A stretch of DNA of 64,000 bases from positions 748-64,747 of the forward strand of contig JABIDK010000001.1 of assembly GCA_018651725.1 (NCBI GenBank), written 5' to 3'. Positions within the stretch are counted from its first letter, which is position 1. Each line of letters starts with the position of its first letter. Below the pieces are notes generated by a model. That model saw only the letters and a program-made list of their open reading frames with translations. It made no database searches and was not told the DNA's origin. The position numbers and the translations under genes were made by a program. This document shows positions 18,909 through 52,694 of this stretch, piece by piece. The stretch is from Candidatus Falkowbacteria bacterium (GTDB lineage Bacteria > Patescibacteriota > Patescibacteriia > JAACEG01).

Positions 18909-18980
18909 AAGAAAACTTTTTTAAATATTTTATTTTTTTACATAATATCATAAAAAAACCGTTTAAACAACAAAAAATAA

Positions 18981-19020
18981 AAGTTGTAAAAAAATGCGAC
19001 CGCACATTTTTACAACTTTT
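18981..19020. repeat. 40-bp near-palindromic element, copy 1, at the 3' side of the PaaX-like gene
   Basis: aaagttgtaaaaaaatgcgaccgcacatttttacaacttt. It is the exact reverse complement of the element at 19612-19651. Confidence 0.7.
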
Positions 19021-19067: not shown

Positions 19068-19595
19068 TTACAAATCAAATCTTTTCTTAAAAAGTAAGTC
19101 ATTGCTTATTTTGTCAACTACCATCAAAACTACAAATTTGGCAATTTCCAGGCGCTTGATAATATTTTGGATTTCTTCAAAATTGTCATATGGGCTTATC
19201 CAGACGCTGTTTTGGCATTTTTCAAACCCAAGGTCTATTAAAATATTTCGCAAATAATTACGCAACTCTTTTTTCTTTTCTGGAATATCAAAAATAACAA
19301 TTCTCCATTTCTTATCCCATTTTTCATTTTCTTTTTTTATTTTACCTTTGGCTATTAATAATTTTTTCAAGCCTTTTAAAGTAAACCCTTTTTTATTAAT
19401 ATATTTAAACCTTTTCAAGTGATAAATTTGAGCATAAATTCTTTTCTGCTCTTTTTTGTCTTCAATTCTTCTCCTTTTTTCGTTATAATAATCATCATAC
19501 CAAGCCCCACTTCTATTGATATTAACCTTAAGGATTCGTTCTAAATTATCAGCTAAATCCGTAATTAGTTCTTCAAGGTCAATTTTAACAGGCAT
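19068..19595 (-). CDS. PaaX-family / Cas2-like-fold putative transcriptional regulator
   Basis: C-terminal WRIVIFDIPEKKKELRNYLRNILIDLGFEKCQNSVWISPYD resembles the PaaX C-terminal (Cas2-like) domain. 175 aa. Confidence 0.5.
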   Translation of the reverse strand: MPVKIDLEELITDLADNLERILKVNINRSGAWYDDYYNEKRRRIEDKKEQKRIYAQIYHLKRFKYINKKGFTLKGLKKLLIAKGKIKKENEKWDKKWRIVIFDIPEKKKELRNYLRNILIDLGFEKCQNSVWISPYDNFEEIQNIIKRLEIAKFVVLMVVDKISNDLLFKKRFDL

Positions 19596-19611: not shown

Positions 19612-19651
19612 AAAGTTGTAAAAATGTGCGGTCGCATTTTTTTACAACTTT
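19612..19651. repeat. 40-bp near-palindromic element, copy 2, in the divergent promoter region between the PaaX-like gene and tsaC
   Basis: aaagttgtaaaaatgtgcggtcgcatttttttacaacttt, which equals the reverse complement of 18981-19020. Confidence 0.7.
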
Positions 19652-22259: not shown

Positions 22260-22550
22260 CTATCCATGGGCGGCAATAAGCACTTTATTGTTCCGGCCAT
22301 CATCATAAAATACCTTACGAGTTTTATGAACAACCGAATGAAAAACAACTAAATACGCCCATACGGCCATTGGACCGGTAAGTACAACCTCTTCAATGTT
22401 AATATCCATTGTGGCGATATTTCTGCCTACAATATTAACTGCTTCTTCCACCGGAGTAATTAGATTTAACCGTCCAGCCACTTCGGTAATCTCGCAACCA
22501 TTATATAGGTTAGTGTTTGTGAGACCGAGATTAATAGTCTTAACAACCAT
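22260..22550 (-). CDS. Hypothetical protein (96 aa), islet module A, distal gene
   Basis: ORF with GC and codon usage shifted from the flanking genes. No recognised family. Confidence 0.45.
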   Translation of the reverse strand: MVVKTINLGLTNTNLYNGCEITEVAGRLNLITPVEEAVNIVGRNIATMDINIEEVVLTGPMAVWAYLVVFHSVVHKTRKVFYDDGRNNKVLIAAHG

Positions 22551-22632: not shown

Positions 22633-23019
22633 CTATCTCCGCCATTTTCTCGCTACATCGTCAAGTTTACTCTGGAAATAGGCATCAGAGTGTTCGTGTC
22701 CGGTCATATCGGACACTTTGTCCTCTCTAATTGAAGCGTAATCCCCAACAGGAAGTTTGGACCCTACATTTTTTCTAGCTATCATGCAACTACCCATCCC
22801 ATTGGTATACCGCATGTACTCAACGGTAAAAGAGGTTTTTATAGTCTCAAAATTAACCCTGACTTTGATACTATTAATTTTGTTTATGTTCGCAAACTCG
22901 AACACAAACATTGCGATAGGCTTGAACTGGTGTAACATGCACCAACTATTATGGGCGTTAAAATTATTCTCTTCCCTCCATGGGAGGGTAGTTAAAAACT
23001 CCCTTAATTCTTTTTCCAT
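22633..23019 (-). CDS. Hypothetical protein (128 aa), islet module A, proximal gene
   Basis: A GGAGAGGAGG RBS precedes the ATG. Repeat R1 lies directly upstream. Confidence 0.45.
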   Translation of the reverse strand: MEKELREFLTTLPWREENNFNAHNSWCMLHQFKPIAMFVFEFANINKINSIKVRVNFETIKTSFTVEYMRYTNGMGSCMIARKNVGSKLPVGDYASIREDKVSDMTGHEHSDAYFQSKLDDVARKWRR

Positions 23020-23070
23020 TTGTTCCTCCTCTCCGATATTTTATTCCCTCGGCAGCGGGGTTTTGGGTTT

Positions 23071-23133
23071 TTAAAGAACTTTTACTTCCTCTAAGTCTAC
23101 TTCACCGATTGAAATAAACTTGGAAAAAGTGGG
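23071..23133. repeat. Direct repeat R1 (about 63 bp), an upstream/leader element
   Basis: ttaaagaacttttacttcctctaagtctacttcaccgattgaaataaacttggaaaaagtggg. Nearly identical to 24747-24805 apart from a 6-bp indel. Confidence 0.7.
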
Positions 23134-23722
23134 AATTTTTGAACTTATGGTATTCCCAAACCATATTGTAAACGCTAACGTGGTTTACTTGTAATAATTT
23201 TGACTTGAAATTATCACACCGTCGCTGTTTTCGCATAAAGCGGATTAGAATCGGTTTACTCATTCCCGATTCAGCGATGCTTGTTTATTTATATAGCGTA
23301 GCTGTACGGATTTCTCCTGCAAGCTCTGCGCTTGACGACAAGAAGTCTAGCCTCTTTTTCTCTTTCGAGAATAAGGATAATCTTCATCCTGAGAATAAAA
23401 ATCATCCCTGTCGTCGTTCTCTATCAGATTGCTATGTCTGCAATCTTTGCAGACATGCTTGTAGTGTATCTTTGTACGATACATGCAATCCCGAAGAGGG
23501 AATTGGCAATGGTCCTTTTTCCAAGTCATAACCACCTCCAAAGAGTTAACGCACTCTAAAATATCTCTTTATTCCCAAAATTTTAACCCGCGTCACCAAG
23601 TTTTATATTTGGTATTCAGAAACATCCTTTCGCGCCGACGTTTCATCAAGGTACAGCCGGAACCCGTTTTTGTTGAAGCGGGTGAAAACAAAAATTGCTT
23701 CCACCCGTAAATAACCTAGCTC

Positions 23723-24373
23723 TTACTTTTTATCAATAAGAGCTTCAAGAATTTTGCCCCAGTCTTTACCGTACTCAGCAAAATCCGTACCAGTCCCATC
23801 GCATCTCCAGCACTTATATTTTTCATCATCGCGTTTTATGCTGCCAGCCCCGCTACAGCCTGAACACTCACGCTCAGTGCCGTTTATGCCAACTGTTGAA
23901 ATACAGTTGGTAAATATAGCTTTTGCTCCATCAATTTGAAATTGATGATAATTCAAATTATCAAGCATGGCTGAGGTTGGATGGTGATGATGATTCATGT
24001 CTGTAGCAACGGCTACAAATTTAGCACCGCTCTTTGCGGCCTCTAACGCGAGCGCCCATCCTACGGGCATTACCTTGCCAACATGCCTCAAGCCTTCACC
24101 ACCTTGCGCCATTTTTCCTGCCGGCATAAGAAGATCGCACAGGACTGCGTCCCAAAAAGGGTCTGTTTCATTTTTGTTTAAGCCTGGCCAATTCGTGCCG
24201 TCAATCTCATGCTCCTCAGCCCTCCTTAGAAGCTCTTTTTCATAACCTCTTTTGCTTAAGAGATTATAAGCTTCGTCATGAGATGAACATGTTGTTAGCG
24301 CATGTTCGCCACCCAAAGTCTGCTCTGCCGCCTTAAGGTGCCTCTCGTTGTCATCAATTACTAAAATATTCAT
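23723..24373 (-). CDS. Receiver-like (CheY-like) domain fused to a DnaJ-type CxxCxGxG zinc-finger C-terminus
   Basis: N-terminus MNILVIDDNERHL...DAVLCDLLMP matches the receiver-domain acidic pocket and phospho-acceptor Asp context. C-terminus carries CSGCSGAG and CWRCDGTG repeats. 216 aa. Confidence 0.55.
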   Translation of the reverse strand: MNILVIDDNERHLKAAEQTLGGEHALTTCSSHDEAYNLLSKRGYEKELLRRAEEHEIDGTNWPGLNKNETDPFWDAVLCDLLMPAGKMAQGGEGLRHVGKVMPVGWALALEAAKSGAKFVAVATDMNHHHHPTSAMLDNLNYHQFQIDGAKAIFTNCISTVGINGTERECSGCSGAGSIKRDDEKYKCWRCDGTGTDFAEYGKDWGKILEALIDKK

Positions 24374-24530
24374 AACATTTCTCCAGCCCCTGAAATACCC
24401 CGAGGCACGGGTTAGCCACGATATGCAGCTTTTTTTGAATTGGCAGTGTCGGCTTGCCAGGCCCCCGGGAGCTGCCCCTGAGTATTACAAGTCCGGTTTA
24501 AAGTCATGGACGTGGACTGATCTGCAAACC

Positions 24531-24725
24531 CTATACCGGCTCAGGATCCGGATGTAACCAAATGTCACATTGATCGCAAATGTCATAACCTTCAGCTACT
24601 TGGTTGTGACATCCTTTGCTGGCGCAGATTACCGGAGTGATTGTTGCCAAAAACTCCGGATGTGCTTGTTGTTTTAGCACCGCCAATCGGCGACGCCTCC
24701 TCATGTTATTATCCTTATCGGACAT
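24531..24725 (-). CDS. Small Cys-containing protein (64 aa), islet module B, first gene
   Basis: CASKGCHNQ...CDQCD. Repeat R2 lies immediately upstream. Confidence 0.4.
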   Translation of the reverse strand: MSDKDNNMRRRRRLAVLKQQAHPEFLATITPVICASKGCHNQVAEGYDICDQCDIWLHPDPEPV

Positions 24726-24746
24726 GGCAACACCTCATTATTTAGT

Positions 24747-24805
24747 TTTAAAGAACTTCCTCTAAGTCTACTTCACCGATTGAAATAAACTTGGAAAAAG
24801 TGGGG
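24747..24805. repeat. Direct repeat R2 (about 59 bp), second copy of the upstream/leader element
   Basis: ttaaagaacttcctctaagtctacttcaccgattgaaataaacttggaaaaagtgggg. Confidence 0.7.
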
Positions 24806-24968
24806 AATGTTTATTGAGCCTCCCCCTTAGTTAAATAGTTTTTGTAATGAACATCTAATCTTTATTATTCTTACAATATCACAAAGCAAATAAACTGTCA
24901 GTAAAAATGTAAAAAATGTAAATTTTTATTAAAATTTATTTTATTACCTCGTTTTTTTAGCTTAAATA

Positions 24969-25057: not shown

Positions 25058-25786
25058 ATGCTATTAAAAACATTACAAAAAATCGGGCTTAATGAAAAAG
25101 AGGCCAAGGTTTATTTGGCCTCCCTGGAATTGGGCGAAACAAACATACAAAGGATCTCCAAAAAATCAGGGGTAAAAAGAACAACTGTTTACGATATATT
25201 GGAATCGTTAAAAAAAAGAGGGCTAATCAGCACCTTTAAAAAAAATAAAAAAATCTTTTACTATGCGGAATCGCCAAAATCCCTAGACAAAGACCTTGAT
25301 GAAAAAAAAGAATTATTAAAACAGGCCATGTCGGAGCTAATGTCAATTTCCAATCTCATAGATAAAAAGCCGAAGATTAGATACTTTGAACATGTCGAGG
25401 GAATAAAAGAAGTTTATTTGGACACATTAAACTATCCGGAACAAGAAATGGTTTCATGGATCGCTGAAGAAGCTTTTTATAATTTTGATGTTGATTTTTT
25501 AAATAGCTATTATCATCCCAAAAGATTAAAGAAAAAAATTTGGACAAGAGAAATCGCCTCTGATGATCCGGAAACTCAAAAATATAAAAGAGATGATGAA
25601 AAAAGCCTAAGAAACACAAAACTATTATCAGCAGAAGACTTCCCTTTGGATGTAAGTATAAACCTGTACGGAAAAAATAAAATCGGCATTATGTCGTTTG
25701 ACGAAGAAATAGGCATAATAATAGAAAGTGAAAAAATTTATGTTACATTGAAAAGTATGTTTGAATTTGCTTGGGGTAAATTATAA
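25058..25786 (+). CDS. TrmB-family transcriptional regulator (N-terminal wHTH), paralog 1
   Basis: GLNEKEAKVYLASLELGETNIQRISKKSGVKRTTVYDILESLKKRGLI is a TrmB-type wHTH. It is a paralog of 30869-31618. Confidence 0.7.
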   Translation: MLLKTLQKIGLNEKEAKVYLASLELGETNIQRISKKSGVKRTTVYDILESLKKRGLISTFKKNKKIFYYAESPKSLDKDLDEKKELLKQAMSELMSISNLIDKKPKIRYFEHVEGIKEVYLDTLNYPEQEMVSWIAEEAFYNFDVDFLNSYYHPKRLKKKIWTREIASDDPETQKYKRDDEKSLRNTKLLSAEDFPLDVSINLYGKNKIGIMSFDEEIGIIIESEKIYVTLKSMFEFAWGKL

Positions 25787-30868: not shown

Positions 30869-31618
30869 TTATTTTTTTAATAAATCCCAAATTAAATAAA
30901 ACATAGACCTTTGACTTTGGGCAAGCTCCTTGCTTTCAATAACTATTGCCATCATTTCTTTTTTAAAAGAAAACATAGCGATTTTGTCACCCCAAATCAT
31001 TATTAAACTGTGATGATCATAGCTCTTTGGAGAAATCTTTACTTCTCTCAATTCTTGTCGCCCGATTTTCTTTCTTTCTTGCGCTTTTAGCGAATCTTTT
31101 AAAATCGTTTTTACAGGTATTTTTTTCTTAATTCTATTCTTTAAAAAATTCGGCCAGTAATTGCCTAAATTTGCAAAATGGTCTTCAGCCGAGCTAAAGC
31201 CCAAAATTTCTTTGGCTTCATTTAAAACTTGTGCTAAAACAATTTTCATACCATCTGTTCCCTCGTAGAAATAGATTCCGGGCTTAGTTTTGCTGACATT
31301 ATCTATTGATGCTAGCTTAGGCAAAATTTGCTCTAAAAGATTTTCTCTTTGTTTAATAATTATTTTTAACTCTTTCGGATTTACTGCTAAAAATCTTTTC
31401 TTCTTGCCCTCTGAAGCGGTTTTTATAATACCTTCTTTAATCATCTCGTCAATAACGTCATAAATAGTAGTACGCTTAACTTCGGATTTACGCGCTATTT
31501 CTTTAATGGAAGTTTTGCCCAATTCTAAACAGGCTAAATATATTTTAGCCTGTTTTTCATTTAAACCAACTTGTTGTAAAGCAGAAACAAGCATTCTCAC
31601 TGTATTAAAAGTCGACAT
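30869..31618 (-). CDS. TrmB-family transcriptional regulator, paralog 2
   Basis: GLNEKQAKIYLACLELGKTSIKEIARKSEVKRTTIYDVIDEMIKEGII, a TrmB-type wHTH. Confidence 0.7.
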   Translation of the reverse strand: MSTFNTVRMLVSALQQVGLNEKQAKIYLACLELGKTSIKEIARKSEVKRTTIYDVIDEMIKEGIIKTASEGKKKRFLAVNPKELKIIIKQRENLLEQILPKLASIDNVSKTKPGIYFYEGTDGMKIVLAQVLNEAKEILGFSSAEDHFANLGNYWPNFLKNRIKKKIPVKTILKDSLKAQERKKIGRQELREVKISPKSYDHHSLIMIWGDKIAMFSFKKEMMAIVIESKELAQSQRSMFYLIWDLLKK

Positions 31619-31719
31619 TCTCGACTACATTTATATTATAGCATAATATGATATTTTGTCAATGCTTAAGCAATATTTTACAATATTTAACAAAATATCA
31701 TAATTTTATGTCGAAATAC

Positions 31720-31748
31720 TTGACAAAATAATAAAGGTATGTTATACT
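31720..31748 (+). promoter_or_regulatory. Consensus sigma70 promoter (TTGACA, 17-nt spacer, TATACT) embedded in TTGACAAAAT-type palindromic operator motifs
   Basis: The region reads cttgacaaaataataaaggtatgttatactg. Upstream motifs atgatattttgtcaatg and ttaacaaaatatcataatt form inverted repeats. Confidence 0.6.
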
Positions 31749-31780
31749 GATTCATCAAGCTAAAAATAGTTTGAAGTTCA

Positions 31781-32410
31781 TTGACAAACACTCACCTGCG
31801 AAAGGCCGCTCTCCTATTGTTGTCAGGGAGGCAGAAGTCGGAGCTACACTGCGTAAATGAGTTAAATTTTATGACAGTAAACCAAGGAAAGGAAAAAATG
31901 AAAAACAAAGGATTAAAAAGAGATCAAGAAATAAGAGAGACCGGAGTACTATTCAAAATTATTAATGTTATTAATGGTATGTTGCAAACAAAAAACGATC
32001 ATCTCAGTAAATATATTCTGGTTATTATGTATTTTATGTCACATGACAAATATACAACAGCCAGGAGTATTGCAAATTGTTTGGTCGAATTGTCAACATT
32101 GACCAAACTGCCAATGCCAAAAGTAATGATTGAGGCTGAAATTATTTACGAAACCTCAATTAAAAAAGCAGAGAATCGCATCCTGAGAAAAGTTATGAAA
32201 ATACTTGGCGATTACAAGCGAAAAAATCAGCTTACTGAACAAGTGTCATTTATGGGACGTCCTGACGAAATGGAGTCAAAAATTTGTAATGCTTTTGGTG
32301 AGGTGTTGGGTTATGACAACATCCCCATCGGAACCAATGTTGCATGGAGATTGACTGAGAAAGGCAGAAAAAAAGCTGAAAAAATAATCATAAGGTATTA
32401 TTACACTTAA
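31781..32410 (+). CDS. Hypothetical protein; the true start is likely the internal ATG at about 31899, after an AGGAAAGGA RBS
   Basis: The first roughly 40 codons of the ORF are GC-rich and look like structured leader rather than coding sequence. Confidence 0.45.
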   Translation: MTNTHLRKAALLLLSGRQKSELHCVNELNFMTVNQGKEKMKNKGLKRDQEIRETGVLFKIINVINGMLQTKNDHLSKYILVIMYFMSHDKYTTARSIANCLVELSTLTKLPMPKVMIEAEIIYETSIKKAENRILRKVMKILGDYKRKNQLTEQVSFMGRPDEMESKICNAFGEVLGYDNIPIGTNVAWRLTEKGRKKAEKIIIRYYYT

Positions 32411-32428
32411 ACAAAAAAGGAGAAAACA

Positions 32429-33076
32429 ATGAAAATAGAGGAATTTTTCCAAATTGCTGAGAACGAAGGCGTTGTCGATATCGAGGATACAACTATCGTT
32501 GGTGACATCAAGCTGGAAGGCAAGGTATTTAGAAAAGGAATTAAGTTATTAGAGGGCAATGAGCTTGAAGGCGAAATCGTGATGCGCGAATGCAAATTTC
32601 TTGATGATGTTAATTTGGAAGGCGGTATTTTTTATAATAACGTAAAAATTTCGGGTTGCGCTTTTTTCGGCGATCTTTTGATTGGCTTTCTTAGTAAAAA
32701 ACTATTGATTCAAAAAACAGAGCTACAAGGCGGGATATCATTTGTTGGTTCTTCTGACGAACAAAACTCCGGAATTTTTCTTTTCGATAATGGCATTCTT
32801 GGAAATATTGATTTTTCCGGTCACGACATAGGGCTCGCAGTAAGAATTATAAGATGCCAATGTCATGGAAGCCTTATATTGGGTGATGCAAAATTTGAGC
32901 AAGATCTTTCAATCCTTGAGTCTAAAATTAAAAATGTTATAACCTTTCAACATTATGATATTGGGTCGGGTTGCGAAATTATGGGCAATGTTTTCACCGA
33001 CGATCCGGAAATAGCACAACTGTTGGCACTGTCCAAGGTTGGTGTTTATACGAACCTGCAAAAAAAGGAGAAATAA
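32429..33076 (+). CDS. Hypothetical repeat protein with a beta-helix-like periodicity (recurring LEG / G.I motifs)
   Basis: IVGDIKLEGKVFRKGIKLLEGNELEGEIVMRECKFLDDVNLEGGIFYNNVKISG... Confidence 0.5.
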   Translation: MKIEEFFQIAENEGVVDIEDTTIVGDIKLEGKVFRKGIKLLEGNELEGEIVMRECKFLDDVNLEGGIFYNNVKISGCAFFGDLLIGFLSKKLLIQKTELQGGISFVGSSDEQNSGIFLFDNGILGNIDFSGHDIGLAVRIIRCQCHGSLILGDAKFEQDLSILESKIKNVITFQHYDIGSGCEIMGNVFTDDPEIAQLLALSKVGVYTNLQKKEK

Positions 33077-33077
33077 A

Positions 33078-33518
33078 ATGAAAATAACATCGGAAATGAT
33101 ACCGAAAAATGCGGTGGTCATGGGGAAAATGCTGGCTATAGAAGCGTATGACGAAGGAAAAGATCCTTCTGAAATATTGCTGAAAGCTCACCGTTTCGTG
33201 CAACAAAGTGAAGAATGTTGCTGCAATTCGGCAATTTCTATTGCTGAATTCGCGCTCTGCGTAGAGTGCGAAAATGTGGCTGAGCATATAAAAAACTTCA
33301 CGTACTGCAAAAAATCGCCACAGTGGAGTGAGCGCAAGCCTGTGTCAGCGTTCAGAATCGACCCACCGTTTGACAGCTATACGCTCGTAATAAAGCGACC
33401 CTTTAACGAAGAAGGCCGACAACGAGAGTTGGCTTCTGTTCGAGAGGACATAGATGAGCTTAAGGCGAAAGGAGAGATCGCTGCCAACTGGGGTGGCGTT
33501 ATGATTACTGGTGATTAA
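33078..33518 (+). CDS. Hypothetical Cys-rich protein (EECCCNS...CVEC)
   Basis: ATG at 33078 with RBS aaggag. The ORF-track start at 33039 overlaps the previous gene, so I prefer 33078. Confidence 0.45.
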   Translation: MKITSEMIPKNAVVMGKMLAIEAYDEGKDPSEILLKAHRFVQQSEECCCNSAISIAEFALCVECENVAEHIKNFTYCKKSPQWSERKPVSAFRIDPPFDSYTLVIKRPFNEEGRQRELASVREDIDELKAKGEIAANWGGVMITGD

Positions 33519-33536
33519 GGAGGTAAAAAACACCAA

Positions 33537-33575
33537 GCCGTTGTCTGTTATTTAAGACAACGGCTTTTTTCTTTT
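33537..33575 (+). terminator. Rho-independent terminator ending the 31.8-33.5 kb operon
   Basis: gccgttgtctgttatttaagacaacggcttttttctttt. Confidence 0.75.
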
Positions 33576-33610
33576 AGAGAAAATTTTTTACAAGTTTGTT
33601 AGGGAGCTTT

Positions 33611-46159: not shown

Positions 46160-46494
46160 GGAAAATATTATTAGGTACCTAAGTTAAGGGATTTTAAGAG
46201 ATATTTTGGTAAAATTACAGTGAATTTACTGTGGAGAACTATTAAATATCGCAAAAGCAGATAACTTTATTAGTTATATACGAACTTATTAACTTCTTGC
46301 TTTATTATAGCCAGATATAGCCTTTAAAATTCTATTCAAGAAATAGCAAGTCGCATAAACATTGGATTTTAAGGTGGATATACCTGTGGATAACTTGGGG
46401 AAAACATGTGGAATAAATAGATAGCCATATAAACCTTCTAGCATTTTAGCGTGTAAACAAGCTAAAAAACAGTGTTTTTGTAGGATGTTTATAT

Positions 46495-46510
46495 TGTTTC
46501 ACGTGAAACA
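46495..46510. repeat. parS-type palindrome, copy 1
   Basis: tgtttcacgtgaaaca matches the chromosomal parS consensus TGTTNCACGTGAAACA. Confidence 0.75.
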
Positions 46511-46534
46511 TAGTAAGATTAAAAGATTAACAAA

Positions 46535-46550
46535 TGTTTCACGTGAAACA
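46535..46550. repeat. parS-type palindrome, copy 2
   Basis: aatgtttcacgtgaaacatt. Confidence 0.75.
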
Positions 46551-46620
46551 TTGTGGAATTGATAAAAATTTGTTATTATATGCTTAAAAGCTTATTAAAC
46601 ATAGCTTTAAAGGGATTTTT

Positions 46621-47016
46621 ATGAACTTAAAACTTAAAAAAACAATTATTGAACTTATATTTTGGTCTCATTTAGTGATAGTTTTTATTTGGTTTGGGTT
46701 ATTTTTTGTGCCAAATTCTCTATGGAGCAATAAAACAGCTTTTCATTTTTGGTTTATCGTTGATATTACAACTATCCAATTTTTTTGGGGGCTTATATTG
46801 TATAAATATACAAAAAAAGTAAATATAATTTGTCCGATGACTACTTTAATGCAAAAATTAAGAGGTTTTCCCCTAAAAACAAAGGAGAATTTCGCTCATT
46901 CTTTTATAGTGGAGTGCTTAGGAAGGTTAAATGTTAAGGTTAGCTATAAAACTATTAATTTACTTTTATTAATTACTGTTGTTTTGGTATCGATTCAGTA
47001 TTATTTGTTAGACTAA
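46621..47016 (+). CDS. Hypothetical small membrane protein
   Basis: Three hydrophobic helices; the ORF lies between parS copies. Confidence 0.45.
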   Translation: MNLKLKKTIIELIFWSHLVIVFIWFGLFFVPNSLWSNKTAFHFWFIVDITTIQFFWGLILYKYTKKVNIICPMTTLMQKLRGFPLKTKENFAHSFIVECLGRLNVKVSYKTINLLLLITVVLVSIQYYLLD

Positions 47017-47019
47017 CAA

Positions 47020-47035
47020 TGTTTCACGTGAAACA
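47020..47035. repeat. parS-type palindrome, copy 3
   Basis: aatgtttcacgtgaaacatt. Confidence 0.75.
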
Positions 47036-47127
47036 TTAATCAAAAAAATATAACAAGGTGAATTCCGAAGGAAGAGAAAGTGGTCTGGGCCAAAACACGA
47101 CAACATAACGATGTGATGTAATGATAA

Positions 47128-47143
47128 TGTTTCACGTGAAACA
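47128..47143. repeat. parS-type palindrome, copy 4
   Basis: aatgtttcacgtgaaacatt. Confidence 0.75.
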
Positions 47144-47233
47144 TTGTATTAAAAAAACCGCACAAATATGCGGTTTTTTGATTTTGTTTAGGCTAGAGGT
47201 CGTATGTTTTCTTACTTTTTTATTTTTTTGATA

Positions 47234-48733
47234 CTATTTAACCCAGTGTTTTTCTTTTATTTCTTTGTCTTCTTCCTCTTTTTTTTCTTTTATTTTGCCT
47301 TTAGCTTGTTTTCTTAGATCCTTTAAGTCCATTTTATCAAGTTCTTTGGCTCGTTTTTTCAAGTATGTTTTAGTATTATTTTTGGGATTTTCTATTACTT
47401 CGGCTAATAAACAATCTAAAATTGCTCCAAATTTGGGACTAGGAGACATTTTCAGGTCTTTTATCAATGTTTCACCACTCACCTTAAGACTTTTTACGGA
47501 AATTGGATCTTTGCTGACTTTATCGATTAAATACTCTAAATGGCGTAATTTGTAGGGTTTTGCCTTTGGGACACCAGACCCAAGCCTGTCTGAAATGCGT
47601 AAATCCATTAAATCTTTCATATTCTCTTTACCTACTTTTTTTACCAGTCTCCTGATTCCGGCATCTGAAACATCACCAACATTATAGTAAAACATGTGGT
47701 TTTTAATCAAATGAGTTACTTTTTCAACGTCTTGGCTGGAAAAAGCCATTCTTTTCATTATTTTTTTAGCTATTTTAGCGCCAACGATGTCGTGGTTGTA
47801 GAAAGTAGCATCAATTCCTTGTCCGCGTTTGGTTTGCGGTTTGGCAATATCATGAAATAAAGCTGCCAATCTAACGCGGTAGTCCTTGCTTGGACAGTGT
47901 TTTAGTGACATTATTAAATGTTTAAAGATAGTATAGGTATGATGCTTGTTTTGATTCATTCCTACACCAAGCTCTAATTCTGGGATAATATATTGCAAAA
48001 GCTTAGCGTTTCGTAGCAAAAGTATACCTTCTTCAGGAGTTTCTGACTGTAAAATCTTAATAAACTCATCGTGAATTCGTTCGTTGGCTATTTTTTTGAT
48101 TAATTTAGCGTTATTTCTGATAGCTTTTAAGGTTTTCGGCTCTATTTTCCAACCTAAAACAACCGCAAATCTAATCGCACGCATCATTCTAAGCGCATCT
48201 TCATTAAAACGCTCGTTCGGATCACCAACCGCCCTAATTAACTTGTTTTTAAGGTCTTTTTGACCGTTAAACAGATCTGTAACTTGATAGTTGTTATCTG
48301 TTGTTTGGTTTTTTGTGTTTTTTGATTGCGCCCGATGTTTCACGTGAAACATTGCCAGTGCATTTACTGTAAAATCTCGTCTTTCTAGGTCTTCTTTTAG
48401 GGTTTTAGCAAATTTTACGCTATCTGGTCGTCTTTTGTCGCTATATTTTGACTCGATTCTGTAGGTTGTTATCTCTACTATATCTATTGTTTCGTCATTA
48501 TTGTTTTTGATTTTTATGCCTACAGTCCCAAATTTATTCTCATAAACAGTTTCAGGGAATATTTTTTGTATTTCTTTTGGTCTGGCGTTTGTAGTGATAT
48601 CCCAATCCTTTGGTTTATTATTTATCAATAAATCACGAACGCAACCACCAACAAGATAAGCCTCAAAATTGGCCTTTTCTAGTGTTTTTAGTGTATTTTG
48701 TACGTATTTTGGGATTTTCATAGTCATAGTCAT
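47234..48733 (-). CDS. cca: CCA-adding tRNA nucleotidyltransferase with a C-terminal HD domain
   Basis: GGCVRDLLINNKPKDWDITT and RRDFTVNALA head motifs, HD region ALFHDIAKP. Contains an in-frame parS-derived insertion (MFHVKH...). Confidence 0.85.
   Translation of the reverse strand: MTMTMKIPKYVQNTLKTLEKANFEAYLVGGCVRDLLINNKPKDWDITTNARPKEIQKIFPETVYENKFGTVGIKIKNNNDETIDIVEITTYRIESKYSDKRRPDSVKFAKTLKEDLERRDFTVNALAMFHVKHRAQSKNTKNQTTDNNYQVTDLFNGQKDLKNKLIRAVGDPNERFNEDALRMMRAIRFAVVLGWKIEPKTLKAIRNNAKLIKKIANERIHDEFIKILQSETPEEGILLLRNAKLLQYIIPELELGVGMNQNKHHTYTIFKHLIMSLKHCPSKDYRVRLAALFHDIAKPQTKRGQGIDATFYNHDIVGAKIAKKIMKRMAFSSQDVEKVTHLIKNHMFYYNVGDVSDAGIRRLVKKVGKENMKDLMDLRISDRLGSGVPKAKPYKLRHLEYLIDKVSKDPISVKSLKVSGETLIKDLKMSPSPKFGAILDCLLAEVIENPKNNTKTYLKKRAKELDKMDLKDLRKQAKGKIKEKKEEEDKEIKEKHWVK
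48336..48351. repeat. parS-type palindrome, copy 5, in frame inside the cca coding sequence
   Basis: gatgtttcacgtgaaacatt, translated as MFHVKH within Cca. Confidence 0.75.
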
Positions 48734-48777
48734 TTAAGCATATAATCATTTAAACATTTAAGCAAGTTGTTTTGCAA

Positions 48778-48793
48778 TGTTTCACGTGAAACA
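48778..48793. repeat. parS-type palindrome, copy 6
   Basis: aatgtttcacgtgaaacatt. Confidence 0.75.
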
Positions 48794-48860
48794 TTATAAA
48801 ATACTTTTAGGAAGCGGGGAAACTTAGTGTTTCCCCGAGATTGGAAGCATAAAAGTACGA

Positions 48861-49094
48861 TTATGCTGATAAATCAGTTGCACGAATATTTTTTACAACA
48901 CTTTTTGTAAATATTACTGCCTTTTCCGGTGAGTCGAATGCTGGGTTTGTGGAAAGTAACGTTGTATGGAAAAAACCATCATGGTATATATTAACTGCAC
49001 CTGCCCATTTACCGGTTTTTTTATCCTGACCATACGGTTCGCAACGAATATCGTTGTCTTTATTCTGGATAACTAATGCTGTATATCTTGTCAT
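48861..49094 (-). CDS. Small hypothetical protein (77 aa)
   Basis: ORF only. Confidence 0.4.
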   Translation of the reverse strand: MTRYTALVIQNKDNDIRCEPYGQDKKTGKWAGAVNIYHDGFFHTTLLSTNPAFDSPEKAVIFTKSVVKNIRATDLSA

Positions 49095-49185
49095 GACACC
49101 CTCCTTTTGCTGATTTAACTTAGTTTAGCCTCCTAAAAGTATTTTATTTTCTAAAGAACAAGATTTTAGATCGTTTAATTGTTAA

Positions 49186-49201
49186 TGTTTCACGTGAAAC
49201 A
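49186..49201. repeat. parS-type palindrome, copy 7
   Basis: aatgtttcacgtgaaacatt. Confidence 0.75.
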
Positions 49202-49243
49202 TTCTTAGCGTTTTATTCTCATGTTTTTTACTTTTTTGAGGAT

Positions 49244-49259
49244 TGTTTCACGTGAAACA
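49244..49259. repeat. parS-type palindrome, copy 8
   Basis: attgtttcacgtgaaacaat. Confidence 0.75.
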
Positions 49260-49274
49260 ATTTTGTGTTTTGTG

Positions 49275-50240
49275 TTATATTTTGATGTTTTTGGCTAACT
49301 GAATGTATTTTTGAGCTGTTTGAGGTAGTTTGTGACCGAGTATTTGCTGGATTTCGCTTACTTTAGTGCCTTTTTTTGCTAAATTAACTGCGAATGTATG
49401 TCGTAGCGAATGACAAGTAGCTTGTTTTTTGATTTTTGTTTTTTTAAAGACTTGTAGAAAGGCTTTTTGAATGGCTCTTTCGGTTAATTTTTGATTTTTT
49501 TGTCCTTTAAATAAATAATTATCTGATAATGTTTCACCCGCCACCAGAACGGTGTCGGGCAGGCGTGAAACATTATCGTCATATGATTGTTCTTGCCCGC
49601 CTGCAACGCTGTAGCAACTGCGGGCAGGTGTTCCAATATATTTTTTTAGCTTTTCAACAATATTTTTTGGTAAACCTAATGTTCTTTTTTGGTGTTTTCC
49701 GTTATTAGTTATTTTAACTTGATTTTTAAAAAAGTCCAGTGTTTTTACCTTAATATTAACTATTTCTGATATTCTAAGGCCTGTTAAGTACATTAATTCA
49801 AAAATTAGCCGATGTTTTGGGTTTTGGGTTGATTTTAGTATTTTGTTTACCTCTTTATCTGTTAAAATAACTGGTTGTTTTTTATCAAGCTTGGCCCGAC
49901 CGATTTTTCCATGCGGAGCAAAAAATTTACGATGTAAAATGCTCTCAAAATAGAACTTTAAAGCACTATGGGTGGTATTTAAGGTAGAACGTGACTTTTT
50001 TTCTTTAACTAGTTTCTCTAAGTAGCTAATTATATCTTTACTTTGAATATTTTTAGGGCTTTTACTCGCAAAACTAACTATTTCTGAGATATAATAAAGG
50101 TAGCTTTTAATGGTTTTACTATCAAAATTCAACTCAACCATTGTTTTCTTTAGCTTATGAAGTGGATTTTTACTGGGGTATTTGTAGGGAATCATGTTAA
50201 TATTTAAACAAGCGAAACGACGATGTTTCACGTGAAACAT
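49275..50240 (-). CDS. Tyrosine recombinase / integrase (XerC/XerD-like); start codon uncertain
   Basis: C-terminal catalytic region HSLRHTFAVNLAKKGTKVSEIQQILGH...YIQ. The annotated N-terminus MFHVKH is encoded by a parS copy, so the real start is probably an internal Met. The ORF contains in-frame GC-rich palindromic insertions. Confidence 0.75.
   Translation of the reverse strand: MFHVKHRRFACLNINMIPYKYPSKNPLHKLKKTMVELNFDSKTIKSYLYYISEIVSFASKSPKNIQSKDIISYLEKLVKEKKSRSTLNTTHSALKFYFESILHRKFFAPHGKIGRAKLDKKQPVILTDKEVNKILKSTQNPKHRLIFELMYLTGLRISEIVNIKVKTLDFFKNQVKITNNGKHQKRTLGLPKNIVEKLKKYIGTPARSCYSVAGGQEQSYDDNVSRLPDTVLVAGETLSDNYLFKGQKNQKLTERAIQKAFLQVFKKTKIKKQATCHSLRHTFAVNLAKKGTKVSEIQQILGHKLPQTAQKYIQLAKNIKI
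49530..49572. repeat. Split parS: the two half-sites are separated by a 27-bp GC-rich insert, inside the integrase ORF
   Basis: tgtttcac | ccgccaccagaacggtgtcgggcaggc | gtgaaaca. Confidence 0.65.
49596..49630. repeat. GC-rich 35-bp element, copy A, in frame in the integrase ORF
   Basis: cccgcctgcaacgctgtagcaactgcgggcaggtg. A near-identical copy lies at 60860-60893. Confidence 0.65.
50224..50239. repeat. parS-type palindrome, copy 9
   Basis: gatgtttcacgtgaaacatt. Confidence 0.75.
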
Positions 50241-50303
50241 TTGTTATCACGTACATTTTTTGGTTTAGGTTAAGGCCCGTGTGTTTTCTTATCTTTTTAT
50301 TAA

Positions 50304-50319
50304 TGTTTCACGTGAAACA
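50304..50319. repeat. parS-type palindrome, copy 10
   Basis: aatgtttcacgtgaaacatt. Confidence 0.75.
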
Positions 50320-50561
50320 TTAATATGATTGGAAATTTGTTGTTAATTACGTTATAATAATAGCATGAATAAAATAAAAAGTCAAATAGTTCGGATATAA
50401 CGAAGGTTTATTTAATAATCTTGTATTTTTTAAAAAGTTTGATATACTTTAAGTAGGTAGTTTTAACAAGCTGTAAGTTCGCATAACATACAAAATTAAG
50501 CTATTAAAAATCAATAAGTTCGTTAATAACTTCTTATATGAAATAAAATTAAGGTAACTAT

Positions 50562-52498: not shown

Positions 52499-52694
52499 TA
52501 TTTCCTCCTATTTTAATATTTACACATCTTAATAATTATTTTATATATTTGAACATATAAAGTCAATACATAATTTTGAAAGAAATATTAAACTTTAAAA
52601 TGTTGACAAAATTCGCGACCGCGAATTATATCAACATTTTAGGGGTTGTGATAAGTGGAGTGGTATCGTTTTTTTTAAAAGTATAATTAAAATT

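Follow-up and report, generated by a model that had tools for sequence, protein, structure and literature searches.

A 64-kb window of a Candidatus Falkowbacteria chromosome (Patescibacteria, candidate phyla radiation (CPR); mean guanine-plus-cytosine (GC) content 0.342) contains a three-gene operon, P1–P2–P3, that is divergent from trmB2, a gene for a TrmB-family regulator. Our sequence comparison favors the view that P1–P2–P3 is a lineage-specific cargo operon seated in a conserved regulatory socket beside a TrmB-family repressor and probably repressed by it, an account that we consider reasonably likely. A TrmB2 dimer would bind one candidate operator, O1, over the transcription start of its own gene, resulting in self-repression, and would bind a second, O2, over the –35 element of the operon, resulting in repression of P1–P2–P3. 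Release of TrmB2 by some ligand would then co-induce P1–P3 with the apparent trmB–ABC exporter–ZIP–PALP operon, of which trmB2 is the first gene, and the leader preceding P1 would be an ordinary long 5' untranslated region (UTR) rather than a riboswitch. The features of the locus are listed below by window position.

31720–31748, plus strand: operon promoter, TTGACA-17-TATACT with a TG extension; consensus scan, 11 of 12 matches; aligns with the divergent promoters of the related loci L011, L012 and L013
31755–31897, plus strand: non-coding 5' leader of about 143 nt, from the predicted transcription start near 31755 to the ATG at 31898
31898–32410, plus strand: P1, 170 aa, ATG at 31898
32429–33076, plus strand: P2, 215 aa
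33078–33518, plus strand: P3, 146 aa
33535–33576, both strands: intrinsic terminator, with a hairpin at 33535–33566 (12-bp stem with six G–C pairs, 8-nt loop)
30869–31594, minus strand: trmB2, TrmB-family regulator gene (PF01978), start probably ATG 31594
31635–31662, minus strand: trmB2 promoter, TTGACA-16-TATAAT, TG-extended, 12 of 12 matches; –35 and –10 conserved in the orthologous intergenic alignment
31611–31625, no strand assigned: O1, candidate operator, perfect palindrome GTCGA-CATTC-TCGAC, 9 nt downstream of the trmB2 –10 box and over the predicted transcription start
31710–31724, no strand assigned: O2, candidate operator, GTCGA-AATAC-TTGAC, whose 3' arm forms the first five bases of the operon –35 hexamer
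31647–31702, no strand assigned: 16-nt inverted repeat TATGATATTTTGTCAA / TTAACAAAATATCATA between the promoters, arms 94% complementary with 24 nt between them

The paired candidate operators carry this interpretation. Within the window, GTCGA-N5-TYGAC occurs at two sites only (three strand-matches), as compared with 0.03 expected from shuffles, none of which reached three strand-matches. A genome-collection scan with TrmB2, covering a collection in which the source species is not represented, returned CPR genomes (Moranbacteria, Buchananbacteria and the Parcubacteria group) and yielded the loci L011, L012, L013 and L014. The regulators of these four loci are 45–48% identical to TrmB2 and nearly invariant in the N-terminal winged-helix region; by comparison, identity to the paralogue TrmB1 is 36%. 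In the intergenic alignment with L011, L012 and L013, the –35 and –10 boxes of both divergent promoters are conserved, together with the block GTCGAnnnTTnCGACTACATT directly after the trmB –10 box and GTCGA just upstream of the divergent –35 box. Each of these three loci contains exactly two GTCGA-N5-TYGAC sites in the same geometry as O1 and O2: the O1 equivalents begin 9 nt past the trmB –10 box, and the TTGAC arm of the O2 equivalents overlaps the divergent –35 box (in L011, where the promoter matches the consensus at 12 of 12 positions, and also in L013). The sequence and conserved positions of O1 and O2 are consistent with palindromic operators of the TrmB family, and the presence of such sites at both the trmB2 and operon promoters takes the link to TrmB, originally noted as adjacency, further than that. 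Two other elements of the intergenic region were considered. The 31647–31702 inverted repeat spans the trmB2 –35 box, is absent from the orthologous loci and is specific to the window; it may represent an additional site for protein binding, peculiar to this lineage. The sequence TTGACAAAAT was rejected as a specific TrmB site, its five copies all lying at promoter-like positions and two of them not beside a TrmB gene.

TrmB2 itself matches PF01978 at 52.6 bits (cut-off 25.6) over residues 14–82, the TrmB winged helix, confirming the divergent TrmB gene that had been read next to the operon. In residues ~90–249 no Pfam family was detected, and thus no C-terminal sugar or effector domain; an effector domain of an unrecognized kind is possible there. 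The called start of TrmB2, ATG 31618 (249 aa), falls inside the O1 spacer, and the orthologues begin with MLLxTLQQIGLNEKQ, which corresponds to M9 of the called open reading frame (ORF) and to the internal ATG 31594 (241 aa). TrmB2 has probably been annotated eight codons too long, with ATG 31594 as the true start.

Archaeal TrmB proteins bind palindromic inverted repeats, for example TATCAC-N5-GTGATA, and archaeal TrmB represses when its site lies at or after the transcription start (PMC4158304). With this precedent, we infer from the conserved geometry of O1 and O2 that O1 mediates self-repression by TrmB2 and O2 its repression of P1–P3. Several features are shared with archaeal TrmB, TrmBL1 and Tgr (sites TACT-N3-AGTA and TGM, TATCAC-N5-GTGATA): the N-terminal winged helix of TrmB2 belongs to PF01978, the candidate operators are inverted repeats with a 5-nt spacer, one candidate site lies over the predicted transcription start and one over a core promoter element as in the repression placement described for archaeal TrmB (PMC4158304), and TrmB2 is apparently self-controlling and its gene comes first in an operon with a transporter. 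By comparison with the archaeal proteins, the host of TrmB2 is bacterial (CPR), the half-site is GTCGA / TCGAC, the sugar-binding C-terminal domain is not detected by Pfam, and the divergent targets, to which TrmB2 binding is putative, are orphan genes rather than genes of sugar metabolism.

The genes behind the conserved promoters differ from locus to locus. A tblastn comparison of P1–P3 with the related loci gave nothing at E < 0.3. L013 has three other small ORFs in the slot, which is bounded there by the TrmB orthologue and a 68%-identical methyltransferase orthologue, L011 and L012 hold yet other ORFs in this position, and no Pfam family was found for any cargo protein of the three loci. 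The TrmB proteins of L012 and L013 are 93% identical, and at the DNA level the two loci are homologous through TrmB, the intergenic region and a ~105-nt leader, up to a point a few bases from the cargo start codon; homology is found again beyond the cargo stop codon, in a repeated intergenic element. Among the cargo proteins, the one similarity above noise is between residues 46–89 of P1 and L012_B (a 113-aa cargo ORF at L012 178–519), with 28% identity over 46 aa, a pairwise E value of 1e-3 and a shuffle z of 6.1. This could be a fast-evolving shared domain, although the similarity is marginal after 45 comparisons.

L012 and L013 also show further architecture of this kind. The promoter and ~105-nt leader are present three times in L012 500–2360 and L013 1260–2540, in each case facing away from a TrmB paralogue and leading into an orphan ORF that differs from copy to copy, and the leaders and cargo spacers carry a repeated element, ...GTAGAAGAAAGTTCTTTAAAA...CCCACTTTyGGG...AAAGGAGA. 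R1 units of ~95–140 nt lie between the cargo genes of L013, each with a perfect ~11-bp hairpin, a palindrome CAAAATTACAAAC-A-GTTTGTAATTTTG with 13-bp arms, a AAGTTCTTTA motif and a Shine–Dalgarno sequence. The R1 units look like cassette boundaries; no recombinase was seen. Directly downstream of the TrmB orthologue in L013 (3451–4794) and in L015 (742–2097) lie genes of 246–250 aa and 194 aa that we take, from recognized motifs, to resemble an AbiEii toxin and AbiEi antitoxin, and the neighborhood of TrmB2-type regulators seems to collect accessory modules.

Several points weigh against the TrmB2-controlled cargo reading. TrmB2 binding and repression are deduced from a phylogenetic footprint, and the transcription start is a predicted one. 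Four loci, two of them closely related, underlie the operator assignment, and O2 is degenerate in L014. The C-terminal half of TrmB2 has no recognized ligand-binding domain, a GC-rich patch in the leader has no explanation under this reading, and the structure models of P1 and P3 (described below) are unusable.

The P1–P3 unit is self-contained. Its –35 and –10 boxes lie within the 16–18-nt spacing of sigma-70 promoters, a G+C-rich hairpin followed by a T-run ends it, and an AAGGA or AAGGAG Shine–Dalgarno sequence precedes each of the three genes, which are separated by spacers of 18 nt (P1–P2) and 1 nt (P2–P3). T-runs flank the terminator hairpin on both sides, with TTTTTTCTTTT following the stem, so the hairpin can end both the operon and the convergent methyltransferase gene. 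The original prediction of a self-contained unit of three genes with no assigned function, with a textbook promoter and a clean terminator, is borne out, with P1 starting at 31898 rather than 31899 and P3 comprising 146 rather than 147 residues. The NCBI entries for the three genes are hypothetical proteins of Candidatus Falkowbacteria metagenome-assembled genomes (MBT4277147–9), in which P1 appears as a 179-aa form from ATG 31871.

The three products have almost no relatives. In word-indexed searches of 5.8 billion protein clusters P1, P2 and P3 each retrieved only themselves. A full HMMER search of concatenated P1+P2+P3 against 1.84 billion representative proteins returned self-matches only for P1 and P3, and three weak matches for P2 (P0004, P0005 and P0006; E = 8e-5 to 5e-4). 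PADLOC gave zero families at E ≤ 1 for the three proteins, PHROGs and NCBIfam gave no family, the PDB no sequence match and 2.9 million viral contigs no relatives; P1 and P3 were without a Pfam match as well, in agreement with the earlier view that they belong to no recognized family. Throughout the cluster, HMMER and contig searches, P1, P2 and P3 were seen nowhere except in the same near-clonal organism, and by these criteria they are lineage-restricted orphan proteins, predicted to be cytoplasmic.

P2 is acidic (isoelectric point (pI) 4.7), and its hydrophobic autocorrelation peaks at lags 11 (0.28) and 22 (0.27). At lag 5 only a small Gly signal is present, and tandem five-residue repeats (20 residues per coil) were not found. 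P2 scores 21.0 bits (E = 3.9e-4) against Pentapeptide_3 (PF13576; gathering cut-off 27) and 14.9 bits against Bactofilin (PF04519; gathering cut-off 27.9), both below cut-off, and also matches LbH models, more weakly than Pentapeptide_3. Its three distant matches comprise P0004, a bona fide Pentapeptide_3 protein (38.2 bits, above threshold) with a repeat unit, counted by eye, of 22 residues, or 44 for the pair; P0005, a 154-aa protein encoded alone on short contigs, which scores 21.6 bits against Pentapeptide_3 (below threshold) and is 39% identical to the last 75 residues of P2, including the C-terminal motif TDDPxxAxLxxLxKxGxY; and P0006, a long repetitive protein. The sub-threshold matches and the 11/22-residue period agree with the beta-helix-like middle protein that had been proposed, and P2 is a borderline case of a Pentapeptide_3-like, beta-solenoid-type repeat protein. 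Qnr, MfpA and McbG are characterized pentapeptide-repeat proteins. P2 resembles such proteins in being acidic, cytoplasmic and all-repeat, in having Pentapeptide_3 as its best family match and in having distant relatives, P0004 and P0005, that match this family too; it differs from them in its score below the cut-off, in a period of 11/22 rather than 5/20 and in the lack of a gyrase or toxin context.

By comparison with acidic P2, P1 is basic (pI 9.6) and predicted to be mostly helical. P3 contains six Cys and one His (C47 C48 C49, C61-x2-C64, H70, C77), so that the Cys cluster noted earlier is present as the motif CCC-x11-C-x2-C. AlphaFold2 models built with no alignment reached a predicted local distance difference test (pLDDT) score of 41.9 for P1 and 48.4 for P3, both too low for a fold search, and P1 was dropped as a winged-helix candidate, the canonical pattern being absent from its low-confidence model. 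Charge, repeat period and Cys pattern are thus the sole basis for the roles proposed. With P1 and P2 complementary in charge and P3 bearing a Cys/His cluster, these features do no more than suggest that the proteins could form a small metal-containing complex in the cytoplasm. That the three products act together is speculation, as is the assignment of nucleic-acid binding to P1, of metal binding to P3 and of a part in scaffolding or DNA mimicry to P2.

P1, P2 and P3 are genuine coding genes with the coding signature of the host. A 3-periodic third-order Markov model trained on 40 long ORFs of the window gave in-frame scores of 0.177, 0.161 and 0.101 bits per codon for P1, P2 and P3, respectively, as compared with 0.19 ± 0.09 for left-out real genes and ≤ 0.08 for shadow ORFs; the other five frames scored –0.24 to –0.98. 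In GC content P1 (0.335) and P2 (0.375) lie inside the range of the window genes (0.345 ± 0.042), and P3 alone of the three is shifted (GC 0.459, z = 2.7; GC at third codon positions (GC3) 0.466, z = 3.3). The earlier label of a GC-shifted three-gene operon is therefore too strong: it holds for P3 and fails for P1 and P2.

These data bear on two alternative readings of the genes themselves. That P1–P3 are chance open frames in non-coding or decaying DNA might be argued from the missing homologues and domains and the low AlphaFold2 confidence, yet open frames of 146–215 codons are improbable in a 34% GC genome, where AT-rich stop codons are expected, the coding signal is frame-specific and exceeds that of every shadow ORF, a consensus promoter, a terminator and three Shine–Dalgarno sequences accompany the frames, and the end of P2 resembles P0005, an unrelated metagenomic protein; we give this reading hardly any weight. 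A more serious alternative, still an improbable one in our estimation, is that P1–P3 form a recently acquired mobile, phage-derived or defense cassette whose link to TrmB is incidental. The orphan status of all three proteins, the GC3 shift of P3, the filling of the slot by other orphan genes in relatives and the AbiEii/AbiEi-like pair beside the TrmB orthologue in L013 and L015 point in this direction. Against it, the three proteins are without a PADLOC or PHROGs family or viral relatives, no integrase, tRNA gene or flanking direct repeats were found, P1 and P2 are native in GC content and coding signature, and the promoter and O2 are ancestral rather than imported. Identical cargo was found beside TrmB2 everywhere in the TrmB2 look-up, so that the cassette is fixed in every sampled population. 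No repeats flank 31700–33600, as integron-type cassettes would have, and no recombinase was present among the neighboring genes scanned, which cover part of the window. As in integron cassette arrays, the ORFs placed behind a conserved promoter and leader are unrelated from one related genome to the next, and L012/L013 homology breaks off at the cargo start codon and returns past the stop codon; unlike in such arrays, no integrase was found, P1–P3 lack cassette-flanking repeats, and the sister-unit repeats are only candidates for recombination sites. A broader version of the idea, which we offer as a tentative and rather unlikely generalization, is that TrmB regulators of Parcubacteria and other CPR bacteria would define conserved expression sockets, each made up of a long leader, a divergent promoter and a pair of operators, into which unrelated, fast-turnover orphan genes are exchanged, with the AAGTTCTTTAAAA motif and the hairpin/palindrome R1 units of L012/L013 as cassette boundaries; the system would be integron-like without a known integrase, and P1–P2–P3 would be one cargo.

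The leader invites two further alternatives. In one, it would be a cis-regulatory RNA (riboswitch, attenuator or thermometer) acting after transcription start, as the original prediction had allowed. Its length of about 143 nt between a strong promoter and P1 is that of riboswitch and other leader-RNA operons, sister units have long leaders too, and the patch 31793–31852 (60 nt) has a GC content of 0.583, in the top 0.4% of 60-nt windows, as compared with 0.227 for the O1–O2 intergenic background. In addition, CUCUCCU and AGGGAGG segments are able to pair, and UUCAUU (31777–82) is complementary to AAUGAA at the start codon. Unlike in leader-RNA operons, family match, excess stability and conservation are all lacking: Rfam has no match inside 31749–31897 at E ≤ 10 and none at gathering level anywhere in the window, minimum free energies are no better than those of dinucleotide shuffles (z of –1.07, +0.95, +0.50, –0.91 and +0.51 for five cuts), and the centroid structures are nearly empty. 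No diverged homologue of the leader was found, the ten other contigs with the locus, from several studies, being 99.9–100% identical and the other leader copies 100% identical. The P1 leader had been suspected of sharing the AAGTTCTTTAAAA...ATCACC element of the sister units. An nhmmer profile of the other ten copies does not detect it; its GAAGTTCATTGACAAACACTCACC resembles the sister-unit element only loosely and by eye, and we do not claim membership. An RNA structure common to the sister leaders was likewise discarded (z –1.5 to +0.6, with inconsistent pairings). Of the structured, GC-rich leader of about 140 nt first described, the length and the GC-rich patch hold and structure beyond chance does not; a structured cis-regulatory RNA is unsupported, and we think it quite unlikely that the leader acts as one. 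In the other alternative, which we judge less probable again, P1 would start at TTG 31781 (209 aa) and most of the leader would be coding. The frame is open from 31775 into P1, and the NCBI call at ATG 31871 is already upstream. However, 31781–31897 scores –0.10 bits per codon in the P1 frame as compared with +0.177 for P1, indicating that the leader is not a coding extension of P1. Furthermore, a Shine–Dalgarno sequence is absent before both 31781 and 31871, AAGGAAAGGA precedes ATG 31898, and the TTG lies only ~26 nt past the predicted transcription start. The original prediction had named a leader both unconserved and coding from 31781 as a finding that would count against its reading of the unit; the former was observed and the latter was not. 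It had also named a failure of the three genes to co-occur elsewhere, and P1, P2 and P3 were seen only in the same near-clonal organism.

Other features of the window and of its source population were recorded alongside the operon. A second TrmB-linked unit occupies 22633–24900 on the minus strand, divergent from TrmB1 (25058–25786), and is a GC-rich array (0.40–0.535) of small orphan ORFs of 64, 216, ~60 and 128 aa, some of them Cys-rich and the 216-aa one with a DnaJ-like segment, CxxCxGxG. In this unit a 57-nt repeat (23084–23140 and 24755–24811, 95% identical) holds the sister-unit core motif twice, the AAGTTCTTTAAAA motif lies next to the repeat, ~20–60 nt before start codons, and the spacer 24374–24530 has a GC content of 0.535 and no Rfam match. 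Elsewhere, at 46487–50321, the palindrome ATGTTTCACGTGAAACAT is found eight times in 4 kb, chiefly in intergenic positions, a pattern resembling the operators of a single regulon. A palindromic element of 40 nt, AAAGTTGTAAAAA..GCGACCGC..TTTTTACAACTTT, occurs three times, at 18980–19019, 19612–19651 and 52599–52638; the first two flank the gene of a PaaX-like regulator with a Cas2-like middle domain (19068–19595), and the elements are probably its operators. The species of the window is not among the GTDB representatives scanned, and a metagenome scan with the methyltransferase gave distant matches only. Contigs L001–L010 and L026–L034, which correspond to window positions 22429–43076, match the window at 99.9–100% identity over up to 14.8 kb; they belong to ten or more metagenome assemblies, available through four public sources (ENA, Logan, JGI and NCBI). 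This near-identity reflects either a remarkably clonal population with a wide distribution or contamination from a shared reagent or water system.

A large share of CPR genes is unannotated, and the P1–P3 operon alone would simply add another group of hypothetical genes to those of CPR genomes; its regulatory context adds the value. To our knowledge, no transcription factor has been characterized experimentally in this phylum, and our literature search found no paper linking TrmB with the candidate phyla radiation. A divergent repressor–target pair is of a known kind. By comparison, the definition of a CPR TrmB operator appears to be new, as does the observation of the same socket fronting unrelated orphan genes in close relatives, both being drawn from four loci that include two close relatives. 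GTCGA-N5-TYGAC offers a concrete candidate operator for a bacterial TrmB-family regulator. If general, the arrangement would provide reduced-genome symbionts with a route to acquire and control lineage-specific genes, and would provide a handle for finding co-regulated orphan genes.

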